From an uncultured Gammaproteobacteria bacterium (GTDB lineage Bacteria > Patescibacteriota > Microgenomatia > CAZETR01 > Amesbacteraceae), in assembly GCA_964502885.1 (NCBI GenBank), contig CAZCXU010000005.1, forward strand, positions 1 to 60,467: a stretch of DNA of 60,467 nucleotides, read 5' to 3'. The notes beneath the pieces are model-generated. The model had not been told where the DNA came from, ran no database searches, and was given only the letters and a program-made list of their open reading frames with translations. This document shows, in pieces, positions 36,934 to 46,748 of the stretch (positions within the stretch are counted from its first letter, which is position 1; each line of letters opens with the position of its first letter). The translations under genes were made by a program, and so were the position numbers.

Positions 36934-37700
36934 GGAAACGGCAAAAGATGGTAATTACGGCCCTGGTTCTGTCGGTCGGATTACTTCTGGTCCAGTCAAT
37001 GGGATTGGAGCTTCGGTATATTCTGATTGCCGGTATGGCACTACTCTCATGGGTGCTTTCGGCATGGTCGCTGCGGGAAGGTCTTTCGGGAATTGAGTGG
37101 TTGACCGTTCCCTTGCCTGCGTCATTGTTTACGGCTTCAGTAGGACTTTTTTATATACTTTTACCTCAGGAGTGGTGGGCTAGGGCCGTAATTGCTCTGG
37201 TGTTTGCGGTGGGACAATATGCACTGCTTTTGACCGGGAATATCTTTTCGGTCGCAGCTATCCGGACTATCGCGTTGTTTCGTGCGGCATCGGCAGTAGG
37301 GTTTGTGATGACACTGGTTACGGGTTTTTTTCTGTTTGATACCATTTACTCGTTTAAACTGCATGCGCCGTTTGTGGGGCTTTTGGTGATGGTGGTGAGC
37401 TTTGCTCTAATCCTGCCTGCTTTGTGGTCAGTCGAGCTTTTGACACGAATATCCAAGCGGGTGTGGGCATATACGATGGGAATCTCTTTTTCTCTGGGTG
37501 TAATGGCGATGGCGGTGACATTTTGGCCGGTAAGCATAGCTGTGGCTTCGCTTTTCCTGTCTACAATCATGTATGCGCTTTTGGGAATATCACAGCATCA
37601 TTTTGCGGATAGACTATTTGGCAGGACAGTATGGGAATATGTGACAGTGGGGTTGGTGGTGACGGTCACGATGATGTTGACGGCGGGGTGGGGGGTGTAG
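36930..37700 (+). CDS. Hypothetical polytopic membrane protein
   Basis: 256 aa with about 7 TM helices. 4-nt overlap with the yebC stop. Confidence 0.5.
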   Translation: MRKRQKMVITALVLSVGLLLVQSMGLELRYILIAGMALLSWVLSAWSLREGLSGIEWLTVPLPASLFTASVGLFYILLPQEWWARAVIALVFAVGQYALLLTGNIFSVAAIRTIALFRAASAVGFVMTLVTGFFLFDTIYSFKLHAPFVGLLVMVVSFALILPALWSVELLTRISKRVWAYTMGISFSLGVMAMAVTFWPVSIAVASLFLSTIMYALLGISQHHFADRLFGRTVWEYVTVGLVVTVTMMLTAGWGV

Positions 37701-37902
37701 AGATGTATTCTCGTTGGACAGCGGTACCTTGTTCATCGTCGTATTCGGTAACAACTACACGGTGACCCTGTCGGGCCATTTCTTCTGCAAACTGATCAGC
37801 TAAAGATTTTTCTTTAGCATCGGGGGGTGTAGGTTTGGGTGCTCGTTCATTTTTCATAAAGTCGATTGTAGCACAAGGGGAGAGGGGACGGACCTTACTC
37901 AT
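37666..37902 (-). CDS. Hypothetical small protein
   Basis: The ATG at 37902 gives MSKVRPLSPCATIDFMKNERAPKPTPPDAKEK.... Convergent 35-nt overlap with the previous gene. Weak support. Confidence 0.3.
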   Translation of the reverse strand: MSKVRPLSPCATIDFMKNERAPKPTPPDAKEKSLADQFAEEMARQGHRVVVTEYDDEQGTAVQREYISTPPTPPSTSS

Positions 37903-38056
37903 TTTAGCCTCACACGTAGAATTATAGGCTCTTTTCACACGGGGAGAGGAGTAGTTTTCACAAAATTACACCCTATAGGATGCACTTTTCTTAAGTAATT
38001 AGCCTCAAATGATACAGTTTGATGCATAAATTATTACACTATCGGATATCAGTGGC

Positions 38057-38065
38057 TGTGGATAA
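38057..38065 (-). promoter_or_regulatory. Perfect DnaA-box 9-mer (TTATCCACA on the minus strand)
   Basis: The plus strand reads tgtggataa at 38057-38065. Two 7/9 relatives lie at 38319-38327 (tgtggatgc) and 38410-38418 (ttatccatt), inside the longest non-coding stretch of the window. Confidence 0.3.
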
Positions 38066-38622
38066 GTGCTAACGGGTTGGAGCAGGAGGTGCCGGGTGCC
38101 TCTGGAAGAGATTGGAAATAGCCGGAGAAGGGGCAGGAATGAGTGCGGAATAGAGTGCTATGAGTGTTACTTATTTGGAAATTGTTTCTGAAAATAGAAA
38201 AGAGAATAGATATCCCTTCCCCGGTTGTTTTGGTGTCTCTTTTTTAAGGATAAAGAAACTGAGTATAATATCTCTAACGCTCAGTTTGGTGCCGTGGGAG
38301 AAGTGGTTGGTTAGGCTTTGTGGATGCTTCTTATCTTGTTCGGGGCCTGTCAGTCCAGGCATGGTTTTTAAACATCTAATACTTCCCTGTTTGTGTGTGC
38401 ATGGTATTTTTATCCATTCCCAAACAAACCCGAATGCATTTTTTGATTATTATCAGTTGTGATAACTACTGGTCTATAAAATTCGCCGTTGTGGTCTTTT
38501 GGGCTTAGCGAAGACCTTATTTGAGGTCCAACTAACCGTCCGGGTGTGCAAATAGCCGTTGTAGAGGCTTACAGCGGGTCGCAGCTTTGACTTAGGCTCG
38601 GATTAGGATTAAAATTGGCGGG

Positions 38623-38877
38623 ATGAAAGAGAACGACAGAGCTCTTCGTTGGAAAGAACTTCCATTGGGAACCAAGGTGATTATTTTGACGGGAGTAGTA
38701 TTGAGCATGTTGGCTTGTGTGGGGCCGGTTGTTGGCGGTGAAGGTACAGATGGACCAAAGACTACCGGTGTACCCCGAGCTCCGGAAATTGTGCCGACTC
38801 AAGATACCCATAATGATATTAAGCCGGTTAAGGCAGAACAGCCACATGTTACGCCGATACCTATAGCTCCTAGATAA
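38623..38877 (+). CDS. Small membrane-anchored protein (hypothetical)
   Basis: 84 aa. TM segment VIILTGVVLSMLACVG followed by a P/T-rich tail. Preferred over the overlapping junk-like 167-aa minus-strand ORF. Confidence 0.35.
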   Translation: MKENDRALRWKELPLGTKVIILTGVVLSMLACVGPVVGGEGTDGPKTTGVPRAPEIVPTQDTHNDIKPVKAEQPHVTPIPIAPR

Positions 38878-38883
38878 ATTGAC

Positions 38884-39084
38884 ATGAAAGAAAAAGCCGG
38901 TTGCTGTTTGAGTGTTGTTGGCGGGGCATTTGTGGTGGCTGGGCTGATTTATGGCTTTGTGAGTGAATTTTCCGGTCAGCTGGATAGAATGAGGCAGGAA
39001 AGACTTCAGGAGATGCAGAATCGGCCGAATGTCCACCAGCTTCATGATCAGAAATTGCCTGGGTCTCCCCATAAGATTCCGTAG
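38884..39084 (+). CDS. Small membrane protein (hypothetical)
   Basis: 66 aa. TM segment CLSVVGGAFVVAGLIYGFV. It starts 6 nt after the previous stop. Confidence 0.35.
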   Translation: MKEKAGCCLSVVGGAFVVAGLIYGFVSEFSGQLDRMRQERLQEMQNRPNVHQLHDQKLPGSPHKIP

Positions 39085-39099
39085 TCTATAATCAAAACA

Positions 39100-40038
39100 A
39101 TGAGCAGGCTGCCCAAGGTGGACGATTTTTTGCTTTTTCTAAAGACGCAGAATTACAGCCAGGAAACGGTGTATAACTATGAACGGGATTTGCAACAGTT
39201 TGAGGTTTTTTTAGAAGACGAGAAGTTGAGCTTTGCGAAGCTGAATAAAGAGGGATTTATCAGATACAAAGCGTATTTGATCAGCCGTGACCGGAAACTG
39301 CCGGTAAAGCTGACTATAGCTACCGGGAAGTTGGATCCGGCAAGTATAAATAGAAACCTGTCGTCAGTGCGAAATTATCTTAAGTATCTGATTGATATGG
39401 ACCAAAAGGTGCCGGTGCCGCCGGAAGCGATAAAAATGGTGAAAACCGACAAGAAACATGGTCAGGTGGCAGAACTTCCGGAATTGGTAAAACTGGTAGA
39501 ATCCCCTACCCGACTGGAAAAAGACGAAATGATTGGGCTAAGAAACCGGGCAATGCTTGAAGTGTTGATGTCCACCGGCATGCGTATTTCAGAATTGATG
39601 TCTTTGAATCGGGCTCAGCTTGATGGTTCAGGAAGACTGTTTATTCGGGGAAAGGGCAAGAAAGAGCGATTTGTGTATTTGACTGAGCGGGCGACTAAGA
39701 TTCTGGAGGATTATTTGGGCAAGCGGGATGATTCGGCTCCGGCCATGTTTGTCCCCTACCGTGGGCCGAATGGAGGAAAAACTACCAGACGGATCTCTAC
39801 GAACTATTTACAGGCAAAAATAAAGCAGTATAGGGAAAAATTGCGCATAAATGTTCCGACTTCAGCTCATTCGCTGCGACACGGATTTGCGACATATCTG
39901 GCGGAATCAGGGGCTAATCCGGCTGCAATTCAGGTACTTTTGGGGCACGAATCACTGGATACGACTACTCGTTATGTACACGCCTCTGACAAATTTGCTG
40001 AGGAGACGCATCGGAAGTTTCATCCGGTGAGAGACTAG
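39100..40038 (+). CDS. Tyrosine recombinase, XerC/XerD type
   Basis: SAM-like N-terminal domain (YSQETVYNYERDLQQF). Catalytic residues in STGMRISEL (R), HSLRHGFAT (HxxR) and LGHESLDTTTRYVH (H, Y). Confidence 0.88.
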   Translation: MSRLPKVDDFLLFLKTQNYSQETVYNYERDLQQFEVFLEDEKLSFAKLNKEGFIRYKAYLISRDRKLPVKLTIATGKLDPASINRNLSSVRNYLKYLIDMDQKVPVPPEAIKMVKTDKKHGQVAELPELVKLVESPTRLEKDEMIGLRNRAMLEVLMSTGMRISELMSLNRAQLDGSGRLFIRGKGKKERFVYLTERATKILEDYLGKRDDSAPAMFVPYRGPNGGKTTRRISTNYLQAKIKQYREKLRINVPTSAHSLRHGFATYLAESGANPAAIQVLLGHESLDTTTRYVHASDKFAEETHRKFHPVRD

Positions 40039-41300
40039 GAGGAAACGGTAAGTTCAGCTTGTGGCAGCTGGATTTTGCGCGGAGTGATAAATAAAGAAAT
40101 CAGGGAGTATGCGGCGAGTATGATTCCTAGAACAGCAAATGATTGACGATTGCCTACCAGAGAGGCCAGAAGTCCTGCCAGAATCGGTCCTAATATGTAT
40201 GAAAGACTGCTTGCTGAACTCTGGAGGCCGATCATGGAAGATCCTGATTTGCCGAGTCGATCGATGTAGTCTTCAAATACTGCAGAGATTTCCGGGAATG
40301 AGATGGCCATAAAAGATGAGGATAGAAATACTGCTATTAGCAGCACGGGGGTGGAGTGAGAAAAGGCGGTGAGGGCAAGAAAAATACCGGCAAAGAGGCC
40401 GGCTGTAAATGCAACCTGTTTTTTTCGATAGGGTGGGAAAAGTCGTCCCAGAAAAAATCCTACAAACATAGAGGGCAGCGAGAAAACAGGCAAGAATAAA
40501 ATGCCGAGGCTGCTTTGCTGGCGTAATTCTTCTGATACGAGAGTGCCGATTGTCCAGAATGAGGCGTCTATCAGAAAAAGCAGGAAGAGAAAAGTGTAGA
40601 CGGGCCAGATGCGTCTGATTAATATCAGCCAGACTTTGAGCTCACTTCCCCAATCGAAACTTATGTCTGCAGTTTCGTTTGGTGCGTAAGATTTTCGATG
40701 GGGTAAAGTAAACCAGTAAATGGCGAGTATGATTCCTGCTACCATGTAGATTAGTATTGTGGACCAGAATGCAGGAAAATAACTGGTGCCAATCAAATTT
40801 CCGGCGATAAGGGGGCCTAAAAAATATGCCAAAGACTTGAAAGAACCGATAATCCCCCACCCTGCATGATAGCTGTCATGAGGAAGAACATTTTTGATGA
40901 AGTTGAAGTCGGAAAACAGGAGAAGTTCATAGTAAATGCCCCAAATGGCCATGCCAAGCAGGAAAATGCCGAGTATCGGGGGCAGAACTATATATGTGAG
41001 CGGGAATAGTCCGGCGGTGAGCAGGGCTGACCAAAGAAAAAAAGTAAACCTGCGGTTTTTAAAAATTTTGGAGAATGTCAGATCACATGCAATGCCGACT
41101 ACTGAGGAGCTGGAAATAACCATACCCATAAGTGTCTGATTTTTGATGTGATCTTCAAGATAAACTGGAGCGACATAGGACATGATGGCGTCACCGAAGC
41201 TGATGAAAAAGTAAATGAGTGAATATGGCAGAACCAAACGAAAAACTCCGGACAGTGAAAAAAAGTGTGAGTGAGAGATGTGAGGATGGCGACGAGACAT
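40035..41300 (-). CDS. MFS-type transporter
   Basis: 421 aa with about 12 TM helices in two halves. 4-nt convergent overlap with the recombinase gene. Confidence 0.7.
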   Translation of the reverse strand: MSRRHPHISHSHFFSLSGVFRLVLPYSLIYFFISFGDAIMSYVAPVYLEDHIKNQTLMGMVISSSSVVGIACDLTFSKIFKNRRFTFFLWSALLTAGLFPLTYIVLPPILGIFLLGMAIWGIYYELLLFSDFNFIKNVLPHDSYHAGWGIIGSFKSLAYFLGPLIAGNLIGTSYFPAFWSTILIYMVAGIILAIYWFTLPHRKSYAPNETADISFDWGSELKVWLILIRRIWPVYTFLFLLFLIDASFWTIGTLVSEELRQQSSLGILFLPVFSLPSMFVGFFLGRLFPPYRKKQVAFTAGLFAGIFLALTAFSHSTPVLLIAVFLSSSFMAISFPEISAVFEDYIDRLGKSGSSMIGLQSSASSLSYILGPILAGLLASLVGNRQSFAVLGIILAAYSLISLFITPRKIQLPQAELTVSS

Positions 41301-41327
41301 GGACTTTTCCCCTTTGATTATGACATA

Positions 41328-41975
41328 TCAAAAGTTACCCAAGAAGTTCATGATTTCATCGCTGACGCTGGTGGTGAAATATTTCGGAACATCTGCGGCA
41401 GGTACCCATTTGATTTCGGAAAAATCGTGACCGGGTCTGGCTGTGCCGCTCAAAATTTTGCAATGATAGTAAATAGCAATTATCTTTATTTTGCGTTTTG
41501 GAGAGTCCGGGATAACTCTGGCGTGAACCAGACGGAGAACTTTGGCTTGAAAACCAGTTTCAATACGAATAGTTTTTTCCATATCATTTTCAAAGTCCAG
41601 TGAAGAAAATTTTCCTGAAGGAAATGTCCAGGAAAGATTGCGAATGAGATTATCTTTTTGTTTGCGAAGTCCCACAAGAACACGATCTTTTCTGTTTATG
41701 ACAGCAATGCCAATAACCAGCACTGGCGAGTGGGGTGATGACTGAATCAGTTCAAAATATTTTTTGAGAACATAGTTTTCTGAAAACATGTTTTCAGAAA
41801 TATTTGAGGATTGTTTAACAGAAGAAATGGGAACTGGAGTATTTTTTGCATATAAATTCACTATGTCGCGAATTAATTGTGAACGGTTTTTCTGAAATTT
41901 GTTCTGAAGTTTTGATAAAAGATTTAACGTATCTTGGGACAGTGAAATGGCTGTAATGTTTGGTTTTTTGTTCAC
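41328..41975 (-). CDS. Ribbon-helix-helix (CopG/Arc-like) DNA-binding domain fused to a degenerate NUDIX domain; putative ligand-sensing regulator
   Basis: GTG start. ITAISLSQDTLNLLSKLQNKFQKNRSQLIRDIVNLY fits the RHH pattern. The Nudix-box position reads GKFSSLDFENDMEKTIRIETGFQ and lacks the REUxEE catalytic glutamates. Confidence 0.6.
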   Translation of the reverse strand: MNKKPNITAISLSQDTLNLLSKLQNKFQKNRSQLIRDIVNLYAKNTPVPISSVKQSSNISENMFSENYVLKKYFELIQSSPHSPVLVIGIAVINRKDRVLVGLRKQKDNLIRNLSWTFPSGKFSSLDFENDMEKTIRIETGFQAKVLRLVHARVIPDSPKRKIKIIAIYYHCKILSGTARPGHDFSEIKWVPAADVPKYFTTSVSDEIMNFLGNF

Positions 41976-42005
41976 TCTTATTAATTATTAATAATTCTTA
42001 TTAAT
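41976..42005. promoter_or_regulatory. Direct repeat TCTTATTAAT x2 phased 20 bp apart (candidate operator) in a divergent promoter region
   Basis: tcttattaat occurs at 41976-41985 and 41996-42005, separated by tattaataat, which contains the ATTAAT palindrome. It lies immediately upstream of the RHH-Nudix gene start and upstream of ATP-grasp gene 1. Confidence 0.3.
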
Positions 42006-42157
42006 ACTAACATGTTTTATGGATTATTGAAATATTATTTAATTTTTTGTAGCTAAATTGCATGTATTTTGTCTATTTACAGCTGTTTTATTTCTTGACA
42101 ACGAATGTACAAATAATTCAGACTCAGTATTATCTATATAGATGCAGTTTGATTTCT

Positions 42158-43219
42158 ATGCTGAAAGATGAAATGTTTTCCTATCCGATTAGCATTGCAA
42201 TACTTTATTATTCGAGTGATGCAAAGGACACTAAAGACACTGAAATATTTGTAAAAAGTCTTTCCGACACTTTGAAGAAACTCGGTCACATGGTTCGAGT
42301 TGTGCAAGTTACTCACAGAAATTGGCTAAAAACAGTGGGTACTCCGGGAGATGTGGTGTTTAATCTGGTGGAAGACGAAAAATATGAATTGTATGTAAAA
42401 GTTGCGAATAAGTTGTCTATGATGGGAAGGACTCAAGTTGGAATGGGCCCGGAAGGAATGAAGTATATAGTTCGCAAGGCACAGATTAAAAGGAAAATGC
42501 ATTCTGAAAATATTTCCACTCCAAAATTCAGAATTCTAAATAAACGAAGTAATCCAGAGACTATCAAGTCGATGAAATTTCCACTAATAGTAAAACCGTC
42601 CGGTCAACATGCTGGTGTGGGTATAAATCAGGACTCGGTAGTCATTGATAAAAATGAACTGCGAGAACGAGTAAATTTTTTGAGAAAAAATTACCCAGGT
42701 GAGGTGTTGGTGGAAGAGTACATCGACGGACGCGAAATTCAGGTGACTGTGATGGGAAACGGCAGGAAGATTTTGATGCTGCCCCCGGCCGAAGTAGTGT
42801 TTTCAGGAGAATTTCAGGATAACTGGAATGTTTATACTTATGAAGCAAAATGGGAAAAGACTTCATGGGAATATTGGGATGCTAGAATAGCTTGTCCCGC
42901 CAGGATGAGTATAAAACTGGAAAAGCGAATCGAAAGTCTGGTGACCAAAGCGTATCGTGCATTTGAGTGCCGGGATATCGCTAGGTTTGATCTGCGGGTA
43001 GATGAGAAGGACAGAGTTTTTATTATTGATGTGAATATGAGCCCGGGGCTCAATGGTTTGGATGATGAAGAGGCGGCGGTGAGGTCAGCAAAAGCGATGG
43101 GTTGGACGTATCCGCAGCTTTTGGAGAGATTGGTTGCCATTGCTTATAAACGAAGTTATGGTTCTCTCCCCGATCGGATACGCGAGAGGCAGTTTTTACT
43201 TAATGCCCCCGAAATATAG
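42158..43219 (+). CDS. ATP-grasp ligase 1, diverged D-Ala-D-Ala-ligase-like
   Basis: FPLIVKPSGQHAGVGINQDSVV, VLVEEYIDGREIQVTVMGNG, ARFDLRVDEKDRVFIIDVNMSPGL. The ATG at 42158 (MLKDEMF...) is preferred to 42062. Confidence 0.8.
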   Translation: MLKDEMFSYPISIAILYYSSDAKDTKDTEIFVKSLSDTLKKLGHMVRVVQVTHRNWLKTVGTPGDVVFNLVEDEKYELYVKVANKLSMMGRTQVGMGPEGMKYIVRKAQIKRKMHSENISTPKFRILNKRSNPETIKSMKFPLIVKPSGQHAGVGINQDSVVIDKNELRERVNFLRKNYPGEVLVEEYIDGREIQVTVMGNGRKILMLPPAEVVFSGEFQDNWNVYTYEAKWEKTSWEYWDARIACPARMSIKLEKRIESLVTKAYRAFECRDIARFDLRVDEKDRVFIIDVNMSPGLNGLDDEEAAVRSAKAMGWTYPQLLERLVAIAYKRSYGSLPDRIRERQFLLNAPEI

Positions 43220-43223
43220 ATTT

Positions 43224-43607
43224 ATGATAATGCAAGATGGAACGACGACAGATGATTTTGGGCAGGAACTGGTTTTGAATCTGTATGAGTGTGATTTACA
43301 GAAGATCTCTGATGGAGATCATATAAAGGAGTTTGTAGTAAAACTTTGTGATGAGGTGATTTTTATGAAAAGGTACGGTGAAGCACTGGTGCCACACTTT
43401 GGGCATGAGAGTCCAATAACCTCAGGATATTCTCTGGTGCAGCTGATCGAAACCAGTTCAATTACGGGGCACTTTTCTGAATACAAGCGGTCGGTGTATT
43501 TGAATATCTTTTCCTGTAAGTGGTTTGATACTAAAAAGGCTAGGGCATTTTGTAAAAGATGGTTTGGCGCAAAGAAAGTGACAGCCAAGTTTATCCAGAG
43601 AATATAA
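43224..43607 (+). CDS. S-adenosylmethionine decarboxylase (SpeH/AdoMet_dc)-family protein with an atypical cleavage motif
   Basis: GQELVLNLYECD...SGYSLVQLIETSSITGHFSEYKRSVYLNIFSCK aligns by eye with SpeH G.h...dlygC...GvsgvvlisESHltiHtfPE...idvftCg. ATG 43224 lies 4 nt after the ATP-grasp 1 stop. Confidence 0.7.
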   Translation: MIMQDGTTTDDFGQELVLNLYECDLQKISDGDHIKEFVVKLCDEVIFMKRYGEALVPHFGHESPITSGYSLVQLIETSSITGHFSEYKRSVYLNIFSCKWFDTKKARAFCKRWFGAKKVTAKFIQRI

Positions 43608-44629
43608 AGATAGTGTTGAATAAGATTCTGGTCATCTATAACGCAGCTGACCGAAGTGATCCAACCGAGGAAGAAACTAAGATTGGAGCGGAAAAGATAT
43701 TCAATTATTTGAGGGGGGGAGGTTGCGATGTAAGTATTCGGAAAGTCTTTAAGAACAGAATTTCTGAATTTGTGCGGGAGGTAGATAGGAATACTCTAGT
43801 GTTTAATTATTGTGAGTGGACAGGAAAGAAATGTAAATATGAAATTGAATTGCTGGAAAGAATGGCGAAACGCGGAATTAGTTTTACCGGCTGTAATGCC
43901 AGACAACATGAAATTCTTTTGGATAAGACTTTGATGGTAGAAAAGTTTAGAAGTTTTGGTGTACCCATGCTTGGTTCGGTAATGATGAATGCGAATGATG
44001 ATGCGGCAAAATTGGCGCATATAAAATATCCGGCGATTGTAAAGACTACACTGGAGCATTGTAGTATAGGACTGACAAAAAACTGTGTGGTGTACGATGG
44101 GGTCAGCGCTGTGCGACAGGTCAGAAGACTATATAAAAAGTTTCGACAGCCGATAATGGTGGAAGAATTTGCGAATGGTAATGAATATCAAGTATTCGTA
44201 TTTCGGACCAGAAGAGGAGTGAGGACACTGCCAGTCTACGAGACGCAATATAGGAAGCTGCACGAGCCGGTGCTGATTACTTATGCCGAAAATTGGCTGG
44301 GAAAGTCGATAAGCAAAAAAGTGAAGAGAATAGGTGTGACAATGAACCAGATGATGGATAGGAAAATTCGTCGGATGGGGGTGGAATTGTTTAAAAAGTT
44401 GGGCAGTATCGGATATATCAGGATGGACTTGCGGGTACGGGATAGCAGGCTGTATGTACTGGAAGCAAATCCAAACCCGTCTATTGCCTGGACCGAGGAT
44501 CTGGACTTTATTAAGGTTTGTGCCGAAGCTGCCGGTAAAGATTTTGGACAAATAATTGAGTGGATAATTTCAGGATCAGCTTCGAGAGCTCAAGTAGTGT
44601 TTGGTGGTCGGGATACGATAGCGGGGTAA
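43559..44629 (+). CDS. ATP-grasp ligase 2, diverged D-Ala-D-Ala-ligase-like
   Basis: YPAIVKTTLEHCSIGLTKNCVV, IMVEEFANGNEYQVFVF, IRMDLRVRDSRLYVLEANPNPS. An alternative GTG start at 43613 lies 5 nt after the decarboxylase-like stop. Confidence 0.8.
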   Translation: MVWRKESDSQVYPENIKIVLNKILVIYNAADRSDPTEEETKIGAEKIFNYLRGGGCDVSIRKVFKNRISEFVREVDRNTLVFNYCEWTGKKCKYEIELLERMAKRGISFTGCNARQHEILLDKTLMVEKFRSFGVPMLGSVMMNANDDAAKLAHIKYPAIVKTTLEHCSIGLTKNCVVYDGVSAVRQVRRLYKKFRQPIMVEEFANGNEYQVFVFRTRRGVRTLPVYETQYRKLHEPVLITYAENWLGKSISKKVKRIGVTMNQMMDRKIRRMGVELFKKLGSIGYIRMDLRVRDSRLYVLEANPNPSIAWTEDLDFIKVCAEAAGKDFGQIIEWIISGSASRAQVVFGGRDTIAG

Positions 44630-45169
44630 ATGTTTCGGATCTTTTGCCAGAACTAACATCAGACGATTGTGCCAGCGACGGTATAGTTTGTACCTACGGA
44701 TGGCAGTTTTGTTTTTTATGCGTTTATAATCGTAGTCATACCAACGGTCCAGAAAGTCTGTCCATAAATAGGATTTTTTCTTTCCGGAATATGAGTCAAA
44801 AAGAACAATGCGGCTATTTCTGGCAGAGTATTTGGCCACAACTGCGTAGTGGCCCGTTTCTTCAGGCGGTTCGGTGTCTTTGTAAAGATAGTCGACTATC
44901 ACGGCTCTGGGCTGGCCGGGCCTAAACTTGATGGCGTTTTGGATATGGGTGAGAGTGGCCCATTGGACGCTGAGGACGGAAATACCCAGCTTGTTGGCAG
45001 CACGAATCAGGTTGGTGACGCTAGTGCCGTTTTTGTTGGTTTTACATAGAGAATATAACTCCTCATAAGATCGGCTGTCCCCTAAAATTCTCAGTGCTGT
45101 TTTGAGGGCAGCTGGTCCACATGCTTCCTCGTCCGGCTGGGTAAAAGTTTTGGTTTTTGAGCGTGACAT
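44576..45169 (-). CDS. Stand-alone C39-like (papain-fold) cysteine peptidase domain protein
   Basis: QPDEEACGPAALKTALRILG (Gln-x5-Cys), GHYAVV (His), LFDSYSG (Asp). No ABC-transporter domains. The 3' end overlaps ATP-grasp 2 convergently by 54 nt. Confidence 0.7.
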   Translation of the reverse strand: MSRSKTKTFTQPDEEACGPAALKTALRILGDSRSYEELYSLCKTNKNGTSVTNLIRAANKLGISVLSVQWATLTHIQNAIKFRPGQPRAVIVDYLYKDTEPPEETGHYAVVAKYSARNSRIVLFDSYSGKKKSYLWTDFLDRWYDYDYKRIKNKTAIRRYKLYRRWHNRLMLVLAKDPKHLPRYRIPTTKHYLSSRS

Positions 45170-45230: not shown

Positions 45231-46748
45231 TCATTTTTTTCCAAAAAGTGTAAAGTTGGAAACGGAATTTGAATAGACAGGGTAAAAATTGTCAGGAATT
45301 TTTAATGTACTGTCGGGACGACGAACAATTATCCAGCCGAATGTATCATGTGGTTTTGCATAACTGTCATGGATAAAACGAAAATCGGCGTAATAAAGAT
45401 TGTTGATTCCGGATACAAGGACGGTATCGTCTGGTCCAATATATTTTGGCAGCTCCTCTGTCGTATCGAAAAAATCGCCGAACTGAAAGTTGAGGTGAGC
45501 TTTGAGAAATTGTGTCTGGGATATATCCCCGGTGATAACGGGCAGGTATTTAAAATTGGCAGCCAGTCGGTATAGGATAGAAAAAATTGCAAGGAGAAGA
45601 ACGAGACAAAATAAGGTTTTGCGGATAAGCTGGTCTGATAACTTTACAAATGTATATACGGAAATTATTGACAGGGCTGGTAAATATGGCAATACAAAAC
45701 GACTGGTGCCTGAGTGAGGCAGTATGAACCAGAAAGAAAGAGATAGAAGTGTATAAAGAAAAATTTCTCTCACTCCCCTACTCTGTTTTTCAAATACGGC
45801 TTTGAAGATTAGCGGTGCGGAAATTAAATATATGGGATTTACAGGATCGGGATTGCGAGAGAAAAAGAAAAAAAGATCGAGTGGGTTTAGGGAAATTGGG
45901 AAAGGCTCCAGAACGGGAGAAAAAATGGGATAGAGGGGGTTTGCGGTAGTGAGATAAGCAAAAATAAACCAGGGAGCTGGGACCATTAGAGCTAGAAACG
46001 CAAAACGGAAGGCGGGCAATAATCCCCGTGTGGGCTTGTTGAGAAACTGGAGAATTAAAAAAACCGGTAATGATGTTAGAGAGAGAATTTTGGTAGTAAT
46101 TGCCAGGCCTAGTGTAAGCGCGCTTTGTGGGTATTTTCGCTCAATAAATAATAGTAATGCCAACACCTCAAAAAACGTCCTGGCGAGGTCTACATAGGCG
46201 CTGCCGGACAGCCAGGAAAAAACTAAGTTTGAAGAAAAGATAAGAACAGCAAATAGCGAGTACTTTGTGTTTAAGAATTTGCGGGCGAGTTGATATGTAA
46301 GAATGAGTGAGAGTTGGCCGAAAATAAAATGCATTAGCTTGGGGAGAAAGGCCAGGCCGGCTGAGAGCACTGCGGCATATAGCGTTTCAATGAGTTTCGG
46401 CATGACAGAATAGCGAAAGGTGGCGCCGGGCAGAAAACGGATTAGCTCTTCCTGAAGCCAGATTTTTGGGAGAGAGAGATGGTACCAGAGGGCATCAAAT
46501 CCCAATTCGGGGGCAAAGACCGGAAGAAGATTGACCAATTGCTGGATTATCAATACCCCCAAAATTGTTTGGGCAGTTCGTGATAAATTAACCCGGGGAA
46601 TTTGGGGGAAATGCAGGTGGGCGAGGAGGGCAATGAGGAGAAAAGAAAGTGAAAACCCGGCGATATTTAAGGGAGTGAGAATTCCTAATAAACCTAAGGC
46701 GAAAATTCCGTAAGAATAAATGCCGATAAGAATAGCTACTGTAAACAT
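45231..46748 (-). CDS. Polytopic membrane protein, GT-C glycosyltransferase-like
   Basis: 505 aa with at least 11 TM helices. First-loop string PELGFDALWYHLSLPK. C-terminal soluble tail. Tentative. Confidence 0.5.
   Translation of the reverse strand: MFTVAILIGIYSYGIFALGLLGILTPLNIAGFSLSFLLIALLAHLHFPQIPRVNLSRTAQTILGVLIIQQLVNLLPVFAPELGFDALWYHLSLPKIWLQEELIRFLPGATFRYSVMPKLIETLYAAVLSAGLAFLPKLMHFIFGQLSLILTYQLARKFLNTKYSLFAVLIFSSNLVFSWLSGSAYVDLARTFFEVLALLLFIERKYPQSALTLGLAITTKILSLTSLPVFLILQFLNKPTRGLLPAFRFAFLALMVPAPWFIFAYLTTANPLYPIFSPVLEPFPISLNPLDLFFFFSRNPDPVNPIYLISAPLIFKAVFEKQSRGVREIFLYTLLSLSFWFILPHSGTSRFVLPYLPALSIISVYTFVKLSDQLIRKTLFCLVLLLAIFSILYRLAANFKYLPVITGDISQTQFLKAHLNFQFGDFFDTTEELPKYIGPDDTVLVSGINNLYYADFRFIHDSYAKPHDTFGWIIVRRPDSTLKIPDNFYPVYSNSVSNFTLFGKK

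Follow-up and report, generated by a model that had tools for sequence, protein, structure and literature searches.

What product could two ATP-grasp ligases make when a small decarboxylase gene is packed between them? This question is raised by a locus at positions 40035–45169 of a 60,467-nucleotide stretch of DNA (contig CAZCXU010000005.1 of GenBank assembly GCA_964502885.1, hereafter called the window), where a ligase–decarboxylase–ligase trio is accompanied by genes for a C39-like peptidase, an MFS transporter, and a protein joining a ribbon-helix-helix (RHH) to a Nudix domain. The enzymes are of known kinds in an undescribed combination. Our favored explanation, to which we give a probability of roughly 40%, is that the ligase pair acts as a two-step amide ligase on an ornithine- or lysine-derived amine, which here would be putrescine supplied by an SpeDC-type decarboxylase; the C39-like protein would hydrolyze the product, and the MFS and RHH-Nudix proteins would serve in transport and control.

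Gene content of the cassette

The window was annotated from an open reading frame (ORF) map and by direct reading of the sequence, and domains were assigned with Pfam and NCBIfam. An initial annotation, made from the sequence alone, had listed six genes with their junctions and coordinates, and all of these were confirmed. Its domain calls were also correct throughout, with the RHH_1 match (0.005) below the cut-off and the NUDIX match marginal. Its observations were confirmed; its interpretation was supported in part, though not in its view of the six genes as a fixed unit. The four genes on which the argument turns are the following.

42158–43219, + strand: ATP-grasp ligase 1, 353 amino acids (aa), ORF open from 42062; the pair's constant member, Ddl-like in its three-domain fold
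43224–43607, + strand: SpeDC-type pyruvoyl decarboxylase, 127 aa; predicted L-ornithine decarboxylase
43613–44629, + strand: ATP-grasp ligase 2, 338 aa from GTG 43613; fast-evolving partner paralogue
44576–45169, − strand: stand-alone C39-like papain-fold cysteine peptidase/amidase, 197 aa; convergent on the ligase operon

Only 4 nt separate ligase 1 from the decarboxylase (43219/43224), and the C39 gene overlaps the end of ligase 2 convergently by 54 nt.

Family, fold, and active-site residues of the ligases

In Pfam, ligase 1 (3.3e-33) and ligase 2 (1.1e-13) both matched Dala_Dala_lig_C, and VanA and Ddl were matched at approximately 1e-17 by the former and at approximately 1e-10 by the latter. 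However, neither protein reached the NCBIfam cut-offs for Ddl: with PRK01372 (cut-off 243), ligase 1 scored 122 and ligase 2 scored 76 bits, with TIGR01205 (cut-off 246), the scores were 109 and 69 bits, and with every Ddl or Van model they were at most half of the cut-off. A profile of the ligase 1 family reached Ddl at 7e-26, and this similarity was limited to the central and C-terminal domains; with the same profile, the N-terminal domain had no significant sequence match to Ddl. The AlphaFold (AF2) model of ligase 1 (predicted local distance difference test [pLDDT] 84, predicted template modeling score [pTM] 0.84) found Ddl structures as its best matches in Foldseek and superposed on them over the full length, with template modeling (TM) scores of 0.7–0.87 and an identity of 17–24%.

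Both ligases were then compared residue by residue with E. coli DdlB, the sequence of which is identical to that of PDB 2dln/1iov (alignment A4). The ATP/Mg and acyl-phosphate residues of Ddl (K97, K144, E180, E187, R255, D257, E270, and N272) are kept in both ligases, whereas the residues that bind D-Ala are changed clade-wide: H63 to Glu, S150 to Ala or Cys, Y216 to Trp, S281 to Glu or Asp, and L282 to Ala or Phe. In ligase 1, the first four of these positions hold Glu, Ala, Trp, and Glu. Ddl E15 is unaligned in ligase 1 and lies opposite Ser15 in ligase 2, and the N-terminal GGxSxEHEVS motif of Ddl is missing from both proteins. The strict 'GEDG' string of Ddl is absent, as had been noticed from the sequence, but its place is not vacant; an invariant, family-specific FNLVE(D/E) motif occupies that position. 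The family is further marked by an invariant, enlarged, aromatic-rich ω-loop (W-x-V-Y-T-Y-E-A-K-W...W-E-Y-W). An acidic loop on the nucleophile side (S281 to Glu or Asp) together with this aromatic cage would suit a cationic amine substrate.

Matches to other ATP-grasp families were weak: the central domain matched one L-amino-acid ligase (3vot, 1.8e-10), the ligases matched Pfam TTL at 7.7e-5, and ligase 2 matched an archaeal pseudomurein ATP-grasp model at 1.6e-4. No window protein matched a RimK or graspetide model of Pfam or NCBIfam at E ≤ 0.01. Within the ATP-grasp superfamily, both ligases thus belong to the Ddl branch, as remote relatives, and they are not orthologues of Ddl or RimK, an orthology that the initial annotation had named among the findings that would undo its proposal. 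A canonical Ddl or Van ligase is excluded by the family scores and the substrate residues.

The two ligases are only distantly related to each other (approximately 21% identity in alignment A4). In the closest relatives (loci L013 and L095), ligase 1 has a partner gene upstream of it, and with this gene ligase 2 shares 45–47% identity; ligase 2 also grouped with the partner clade in a neighbor-joining tree.

Assignment of the decarboxylase

The decarboxylase matched Pfam AdoMet_dc at 9.3e-16 and scored 25 bits with TIGR03330 (AdoMetDC), the cut-off of which is 76; a phmmer search of the PDB found no match, T. maritima AdoMetDC included. Ser78, His83, and Cys98 are invariant and align with S63 (the pyruvoyl serine), H68, and C83 of T. 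maritima AdoMetDC, the reference sequence of which was checked against PDB 1tlu. Self-cleavage is predicted at Thr77|Ser78 (Ser78 codon 43455–43457), where Thr-Ser stands in place of Glu-Ser.

According to Li et al. (J Biol Chem 2023, PMC10407285), SpeDC, a pyruvoyl L-ornithine decarboxylase (ODC) derived from AdoMetDC, is diagnosed by four residues: Gln, Thr, Phe, and Tyr. The decarboxylase has Gln73, Thr77, and Phe84 as well as a Tyr, the position of which was taken from figure text of PMC10407285, and the AdoMetDC proline is missing. Its motif VQLIET|SSITGHFSEY..VYLNIFSC matches that of validated SpeD2 domains, ..LVQLIETSLVSGHF..AYIDIFSC. The supplementary alignment of the same paper contains the ODC halves of characterised SpeD1SpeD2 fusions, and with one of these halves the decarboxylase shared 39% identity (E 3e-28) and the motif ..LVQLIETS..GHF..Y.(D/N)IFSC.

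The decarboxylase is highly conserved: more than 1000 homologues were found, the best 120 at 66–80% identity, and an exhaustive search of 1.84 billion representative proteins returned 1141 relatives. Eight of the ten longer relatives examined were fusions to spermidine synthase, in either domain order and at 43–54% identity, and one longer relative was a GNAT fusion. The SpeD1SpeD2-type fusions (with AdoMetDC) carry the same Thr-Ser signature. A Rosetta-stone search found no decarboxylase fused to an ATP-grasp or C39 domain.

The diagnostic residues, the similarity to SpeD2, and the fusions with spermidine synthase or AdoMetDC place the decarboxylase in the polyamine-pathway SpeDC clade, and membership of this clade would make L-ornithine its substrate and putrescine its product. 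Canonical AdoMetDC (SpeH/SpeD) is ruled out by the TIGR03330 score, the absent proline, the absent Glu-Ser site, and the lack of a PDB match. Phage-type SpeD homologues were also rejected, at a mere 25–28% identity. The earlier label 'AdoMetDC-like' was thus right as to the AdoMet_dc family and in setting the protein apart from canonical SpeH, but it has to be amended in favor of the SpeDC polyamine clade and of relatives that mostly stand alone.

Conservation of the gene neighborhood

Two scans were made, one of GTDB species representatives for the ligase 1 family, which gave 79 loci, and one of metagenomes for the decarboxylase family, which gave 80 loci. All cassette proteins were compared with these loci by tblastn; individual loci are cited below by L numbers. 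The window is DNA of Candidatus Amesbacteria, and the best homologues of the cassette proteins all came from Candidatus Amesbacteria and other Microgenomates (Candidate Phyla Radiation [CPR]/Patescibacteria). The neighborhood is conserved in many Amesbacteria, in the order YebC, DUF5656-like, Xer, cassette, 505-aa membrane protein or SIMPL, and GyrA.

The ligase pair, with a partner ligase beside ligase 1, was present in 19 of the 19 syntenic Amesbacteria representatives with enough upstream sequence. The other genes were less constant. Among 16 species-level relatives found via ligase 1, the decarboxylase was present in seven, the C39 gene in seven, both in five, and neither in seven. The RHH-Nudix gene occupied the same divergent slot in six of 18 relatives, and the MFS gene was counted in two of 18 (four related loci overall: L004, L021, L104, and the window). 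The constant core is therefore the ligase pair, with the decarboxylase and the C39 gene as accessories and the MFS and RHH-Nudix genes rarer still, and the six genes can no longer be read as one unit.

Where a cassette has the decarboxylase, it always lies directly 3′ of ligase 1, often with a 4-nt overlap (approximately 20 metagenomic loci; 7/16 species representatives). The order ligase 1–decarboxylase–ligase 2, which had been taken as the arrangement of the system, proved to be unique to the window; every relative has the partner ligase, then ligase 1, then the decarboxylase. The ligase 1–decarboxylase junction has thus been retained in the window despite the relocated partner ligase. In Amesbacteria cassettes that have it, the C39 gene always converges on the ligase operon, and in L094, where the genomic context is unrelated, it likewise converges on a ligase pair. 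In one genome (L093), the C39 gene is kept without the ligase pair.

Ligase 1 orthologues were found in Amesbacteria and Gottesmanbacteria. At the end of their ribosomal-protein operon, Gottesmanbacteria have a single ligase 1 orthologue beside the gene for a 115-aa protein, which reads as four transmembrane segments and also occurs in L019. In L004 (6051–6945), the partner ligase is broken into three ORFs of 80, 36, and 106 aa, which reflects either a pseudogene or sequencing frameshifts.

Genes found beside related ligase pairs

The ligase pair lies in a variable region beside a Xer-type tyrosine recombinase (39100–45169 in the window; loci L015–L032). The same slots hold, in one genome or another, genes for RHH-Nudix, SET-domain, MFS, APC permease, IS200-like transposase, decarboxylase, C39, α/β-hydrolase-like, and GNAT-like proteins.

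In L032, which has no decarboxylase, a gene for an APC-family amino-acid/polyamine permease lies directly upstream of the pair in the same direction, and a SET-domain protein is encoded directly downstream. SET-domain genes fill the divergent upstream slot in L021, L023, and L026. The C39 slot of L024 is taken by a 196-aa protein with a GTSAGG α/β-hydrolase-like nucleophile elbow recognized by eye, and L019 encodes a 265-aa protein that looks GNAT-like by eye; neither has a Pfam match. In another CPR genome (L011), two such ligases are followed by Peptidase_S66.

More distant pairs of two paralogues (approximately 30–34% identity) were found in Gemmataceae and other Planctomycetota, Lentisphaerota, Calditrichia, and Bacteroidales, and approximately 14 of these distant-pair loci contain a lysine-2,3-aminomutase-like radical S-adenosylmethionine gene. 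In a conserved operon of Planctomycetota and Lentisphaerota (L043, L050, L067, and others), a lysine-2,3-aminomutase-like gene is followed by the gene for a small two-helix membrane protein and then by two ligase genes, between which a 237-aa protein without a family match is encoded; the order in Victivallis is ligase, ligase, GNAT, aminomutase. No account of this operon was found. In a Peribacteraceae genome, methyltransferase and MFS genes accompany a double ligase that is fused. In Ignavibacteriales (L009), a weak C39-like gene and a related ligase are 2.5 kb away from a gene in which a membrane protein is fused to spermidine synthase.

These partners have a theme in common, namely the supply or transport of an ornithine- or lysine-type amine, the capping of primary amines, and non-homologous hydrolases. 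They point to an amine of the ornithine/lysine type as the nucleophile of the ligases.

The C39-like protein

The C39-like protein matched Pfam Peptidase_C39 at 1.5e-13. The catalytic Gln/Cys/His/Asp set, which had been called intact on first reading, is indeed so: Gln11, Cys17, and His107 are invariant and Asp125 nearly so (≥90%) in 22 family members. The family comprises 64 clusters restricted to Microgenomates, and its conserved basic C-terminal extension is part of the fold. The protein has no signal peptide and no ABC transporter fusion.

The AF2 model (pLDDT 87) matched the peptidase domains of ComA (TM 0.86) and PCAT1 in Foldseek, followed by the pseudomurein endoisopeptidase PeiR and by Alr0975, a phytochelatin-synthase-like protein that cleaves glutathione. 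These matches imply that the fold serves leader-peptide cleavage and the hydrolysis of small isopeptide or γ-glutamyl amides alike. The context of a double-glycine peptidase was not found: neither the window locus nor the cassettes of relatives have an ABC exporter or a conserved small precursor ORF. The C39 gene adjoins ligase pairs, in syntenic and non-syntenic contexts.

A proposed two-step amine ligase and its alternatives

Under the favored explanation, the SpeDC-type enzyme would cleave itself and decarboxylate L-ornithine to putrescine on site. The two cytoplasmic, paralogous Ddl-fold ligases would then acylate the ω-amino group or groups of the amine in two ATP-dependent steps, and the cytoplasmic C39-like hydrolase would cleave the resulting amide, in turnover, recycling, or maturation. 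Export of the product or import of a substrate would fall to the MFS protein, and the RHH-Nudix protein would repress the divergent promoters. This scheme builds on the observed gene identities, catalytic residues, fold, neighborhood conservation, and SpeDC signature; ornithine as the substrate of the decarboxylase and putrescine as the nucleophile of the ligases are predictions within it, and so are the acyl donor's identity and what the C39, MFS, and regulator proteins do. It is supported by the tight ligase 1–decarboxylase junction, the constancy of the pair, the kept ATP/Mg residues, and the recurring link between C39 and the pair (L094 and, more weakly, L009). The resemblance of the C39 model to the isopeptide and γ-glutamyl amidases PeiR and Alr0975 also speaks for it.

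Several observations weigh against this explanation. The decarboxylase and the C39 gene are each absent from more than half of the related cassettes, and because 7/16 cassettes have neither, the pair evidently functions without them. Approximately 58 of the 80 decarboxylase-seeded metagenomic loci carry the decarboxylase alone, at 60–76% identity and in other CPR genomes; in 21 of the 26 longer loci, it is followed by a secreted SGNH/GDSL-like gene and then by a gene for a secreted 170-aa protein, and no ligases or polyamine genes were found near the decarboxylase in those loci. Because most close homologues stand alone, the link between decarboxylase and ligases is specific to the Amesbacteria lineage, and the adjacency there could be plain inherited synteny. 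The identity to a validated ODC domain is no higher than 39%, and neither an acyl-donor pathway nor downstream polyamine genes were found in the window. At the position equivalent to the catalytic ω-loop Lys215 of Ddl, ligase 2 has Asn227, as does its closest relative (L095), whereas this lysine is kept in the partner ligases of other Amesbacteria; ligase 2 may therefore be catalytically altered or impaired, or be a regulatory subunit. Finally, SET, GNAT, and C39 are all classically protein-directed families.

In the solitary-decarboxylase loci (L005, L110–L168), the arrangement of genes is conserved, and EamA, APH-kinase, epimerase, and aminotransferase genes often stand ahead of the decarboxylase.

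The first alternative takes the decarboxylase link as purely positional: a housekeeping pyruvoyl ODC making free putrescine would stand at the end of a ligase operon in one Amesbacteria sub-lineage, and the ligases and the hydrolase would have nothing to do with polyamines. This accounts for the many solitary loci with their SGNH/GDSL-like and 170-aa secreted neighbors and for the presence of the gene in only seven of the 16 species-level cassettes. The decarboxylase is also far more conserved (60–80% identity) than the ligases (45–60%), and the whole YebC–Xer...SIMPL–GyrA synteny is conserved anyway. However, a positional link does not explain why the gene is so tightly joined to ligase 1, with a 4-nt overlap in relatives and a 4-nt gap in the window, or why this junction survived the relocation of the partner. 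Nor does it explain the APC permease in the operon of a decarboxylase-less cassette or the ties of distant pairs to lysine 2,3-aminomutase, another producer of an ornithine/lysine-type amine. We consider this alternative unlikely, although not far-fetched.

A second alternative places the ligases in cell-wall peptide metabolism, where they would add residues to the ω-amino group of lysine or ornithine in a peptidoglycan precursor or a salvaged muropeptide, the C39 protein (or S66 elsewhere) would trim them, and the MFS protein would import fragments. Ddl is the nearest family in fold and in sequence, and the Peptidase_S66 gene that follows the pair of L011 belongs to the LD-carboxypeptidase family. 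The match of the C39 model to the pseudomurein endoisopeptidase PeiR and the weak pseudomurein ATP-grasp match of ligase 2 are in line with such a role. There is precedent for parts of this scheme, as the D-aspartate ligase that acts on the lysine ε-amine in Enterococcus faecium belongs to the ATP-grasp enzymes, and AmpG and LdcA work in recycling. However, inspection of the window and of related loci turned up no mur, ddl, ftsW, or ftsQ gene, the C39 protein lacks a signal peptide, and Gottesmanbacteria make do with one ligase. A decarboxylase, an aminomutase, SET proteins, and methyltransferases would also be unexpected partners for peptidoglycan. On balance, a cell-wall role seems improbable.

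A third alternative, for which we see just as little room, likens the system to the RimK, TTL, or graspetide enzymes, which modify proteins or peptides. Here the ligases would extend or cross-link a protein or a ribosomal peptide, the C39 protein would process it, and SET and GNAT proteins would modify the same lysine-rich target. C39 is the family of double-glycine leader peptidases, with ComA and PCAT1 as the best structural matches here, and SET-domain genes accompany four related cassettes (L021, L023, L026, and L032). The weak TTL matches fit as well, and so does the position of the single Gottesmanbacteria orthologues and of one other CPR pair, which abut a ribosomal-protein operon. Against this, no conserved small precursor ORF was seen in or beside the cassette in any locus, no graspetide or RimK model was matched, and there is no ABC exporter; a cluster for a peptide that is made by ribosomes and modified after translation (RiPP), including a graspetide, is excluded on these three grounds. 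The Ddl type that the fold matches is closed and takes small substrates, and it is small-molecule transporters (MFS, APC, and the 115-aa protein reading as four transmembrane segments) and amine-making enzymes that recur beside the pair.

That the ligases are ordinary D-Ala-D-Ala ligases, a duplication of the organism's own Ddl, as the automated annotation of their orthologues (D-alanine-D-alanine ligase) and the best PDB and NCBIfam matches (Ddl and Van ligases) would have it, is scarcely credible in view of their low family scores (122 and 76 bits against 243), the unmatched N-terminal domain, and the replacement of E15, H63, S150, Y216, S281, and L282 throughout the clade.

Regulator, transporter, and flanking sequence

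The remaining features of the cassette lie on the other side of the ligase operon.

41328–41975, − strand: RHH-Nudix putative regulator (ribbon-helix-helix at the N-terminus, degenerate Nudix domain at the C-terminus); divergent from the ligase operon
41978–42004, no strand: three AT-rich TTATTAA repeats, candidate operator, directly 5′ of the RHH-Nudix start codon
42095–42124, + strand: sigma-70-like promoter of the ligase operon (TTGACA 42095–42100, 18 nt, CAGACT 42119–42124)
40035–41300, − strand: MFS transporter, 421 aa; variable accessory gene

The NUDIX match of the putative regulator had an E-value of 3e-5 (24.5 bits against a cut-off of 21.1), and its Nudix box, GKFSSLDFENDMEKTIRIETGF, read directly, lacks the REx2EE catalytic glutamates. 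The transporter matched Pfam MFS_1 at 1.7e-27.

The promoter arrangement TTGACA...CA(C/G/A)ACT was also found 5′ of the first ligase gene in seven relatives (L095, L001, L004, L016, L015, L020, and L099). Because this promoter falls inside the longer ORF and homologues begin at the equivalent position, ATG 42158 rather than 42062 is most likely the start of ligase 1. Ligase 2 could start at GTG 43613, 5 nt past the decarboxylase stop (43607), or at ATG 43559, and the N-termini of homologues favor GTG 43613. Repeats of the ATTATAA/TTATTAA kind, read from the sequence, occur at the same position in L095, L001, L004, L016, L099, and L132, and they may serve as an operator for the RHH-Nudix protein. 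A generic scan for promoters and terminators in the region returned matches no more often than expected by chance.

The AT-richness noticed by eye at the outset is real but modest. The GC content of the block 41328–45169 was 0.406, compared with 0.452 for the window, and ranks among the lowest 3% of windows of equal size; its tetranucleotide composition is moderately atypical, with a distance in the top 5%. The remaining window genes are housekeeping genes (GyrA, DnaB, HisRS, RF, YchF, Dus, and proteases). As had been stated for mur and ftsQ, no mur, ddl, or ftsQ gene and no further polyamine gene was found among the large ORFs of the window.

Other features of the window were recorded. Over 1–60467, the + strand has a highly asymmetric composition (G 28.9%, C 16.3%, GC skew +0.28) regardless of gene strand; the skew is +0.13 to +0.27 in the syntenic loci of other Amesbacteria and is not seen in Gottesmanbacteria or non-CPR loci. 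In the 1.4 kb upstream of the Xer gene (37700–39100), neither a convincing ORF nor a tRNA was seen and Rfam gave no match, even with E ≤ 1 allowed, and two short segments at approximately 37925–38075 and 38253–38305 are 73–97% identical to the same position in other Amesbacteria; this region may hold an unannotated RNA or a recombination site. On the other flank, 45231–46748 (− strand) encodes a 505-aa polytopic membrane protein without a Pfam or NCBIfam match, which adjoins the cassette in many Amesbacteria. An anti-phage defense system was rejected as a candidate, since PADLOC returned only a weak Nudix-domain match.

Significance of the ligase clade

The ligase clade ranges over Microgenomates, other CPR lineages, Planctomycetota, Lentisphaerota, Calditrichia, and Bacteroidales. 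A bolder extension of the amine-ligase explanation, which we put forward tentatively and with some doubt, is that the ligases are founding members of a widespread clade of Ddl-fold enzymes that acylates the ω-amino groups of amines derived from ornithine or lysine, and that Amesbacteria make a mono- or bis-acylated putrescine conjugate with a cysteine amidase, a transporter, and a ligand-sensing repressor of its own. If so, this would be the first polyamine conjugate made by ATP-grasp enzymes, and the ultra-small CPR bacteria would have in it a metabolite specific to their lineage. A functional link of the decarboxylase would provide the first SpeDC-type ODC that feeds amide formation rather than the synthesis of spermidine or homospermidine, and with it a first route to a putrescine conjugate by ATP-grasp enzymes.

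CPR bacteria have very small genomes and few biosynthetic pathways. The presence of the pair in every Amesbacteria genome examined, against such a background, suggests that it is likely important for the cell. The main value of the locus is as a tractable lead to amine-conjugate chemistry in CPR and Planctomycetes-Verrucomicrobia-Chlamydiae (PVC) bacteria, and the aminomutase-linked pairs give cultivable entry points (Gemmata, Singulisphaera, and Victivallis). The absence of the cassette from described pathways, presumed from the start, was borne out by literature searches on ATP-grasp enzymes with AdoMetDC, putrescine, aminomutase, or Patescibacteria, which found no description of the cassette or of the ligase clade; an earlier mention in the amidoligase survey of Iyer et al. 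2009 is possible.

Comparison with known systems

Compared with Ddl and Van ligases, the window ligases share the three-domain fold (TM 0.7–0.87) and the ATP/Mg and acyl-phosphate residues. They differ in their low identity (17–24%), in scores below all family cut-offs, and in the replaced residues for binding D-Ala1 and D-Ala2; they also have their own FNLVE and W..YTYEAKW..WEYW motifs, form a paralogous pair, and have no cell-wall context.

The decarboxylase resembles SpeDC in the AdoMet_dc fold, the Ser/His/Cys triad, the four diagnostic residues, and the missing AdoMetDC proline, as well as in its occurrence in CPR genomes and in relatives fused to SpeD and SpeE. Unlike SpeDC genes, which go with hss, speE, or casdh/casdc, the gene in the window lies in an ATP-grasp ligase operon, and its product is a predicted enzyme. 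The C39-like protein has the papain-like fold and the Gln/Cys/His/Asp set of Peptidase C39; in contrast to C39 domains that process bacteriocins, it is a stand-alone protein of 197 aa with no ABC exporter or double-glycine precursor gene.

Stand-alone ATP-grasp ligases that make small peptides from free substrates are known from bacilysin (BacD/BacE), rhizocticin (RizA/RizB), and N-acetylglutaminylglutamine amide (NAGGN; Ngg, AsnO, and a peptidase). Some of these are in tandem, some have an MFS exporter or a dedicated peptidase, and NAGGN includes a GNAT protein; however, the window ligases are without the LAL_C2 domain, and the other genes of those pathways are absent.

The supply of an amine by an amino-acid decarboxylase for acylation by a ligase recalls two other pathways. 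In methanofuran biosynthesis (MfnA/MfnD), tyramine is γ-glutamylated by the ATP-grasp enzyme MfnD. In rhizoferrin biosynthesis (FslA/FslC/MFS; LbtA/LbtB), putrescine or ornithine is citrylated, and the product leaves by an MFS exporter. Their decarboxylases depend on pyridoxal phosphate (PLP), however, the rhizoferrin ligase is a nonribosomal-peptide-synthetase-independent siderophore (NIS) synthetase and not of the ATP-grasp kind, and no sequence relationship to the window proteins is known.

The initial annotation had likened the cassette to butirosin and glutathionylspermidine metabolism, and in both cases the resemblance of logic stands, whereas membership does not. The butirosin proteins BtrJ, BtrK, and BtrH likewise combine an ATP-grasp enzyme, a decarboxylase, and a papain-fold enzyme. 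However, the butirosin pathway needs the acyl carrier protein BtrI and a PLP decarboxylase, whereas the window locus is without a carrier and has a decarboxylase of the pyruvoyl type; in addition, no cassette protein in the window matched BtrH_N of Pfam.

In glutathionylspermidine synthetase/amidase and trypanothione synthetase-amidase, an ATP-dependent ligase acylates the amino groups of a polyamine, twice in the case of trypanothione, and a papain-fold cysteine amidase reverses the reaction. Those enzymes are single bifunctional proteins that join a CHAP amidase to a GSP_synth-type domain, and neither domain had a Pfam match among the cassette proteins of the window, which are encoded by separate genes for Ddl-like ligases and a C39-like amidase. 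What the two share is the logic of a ligase working together with an amidase.

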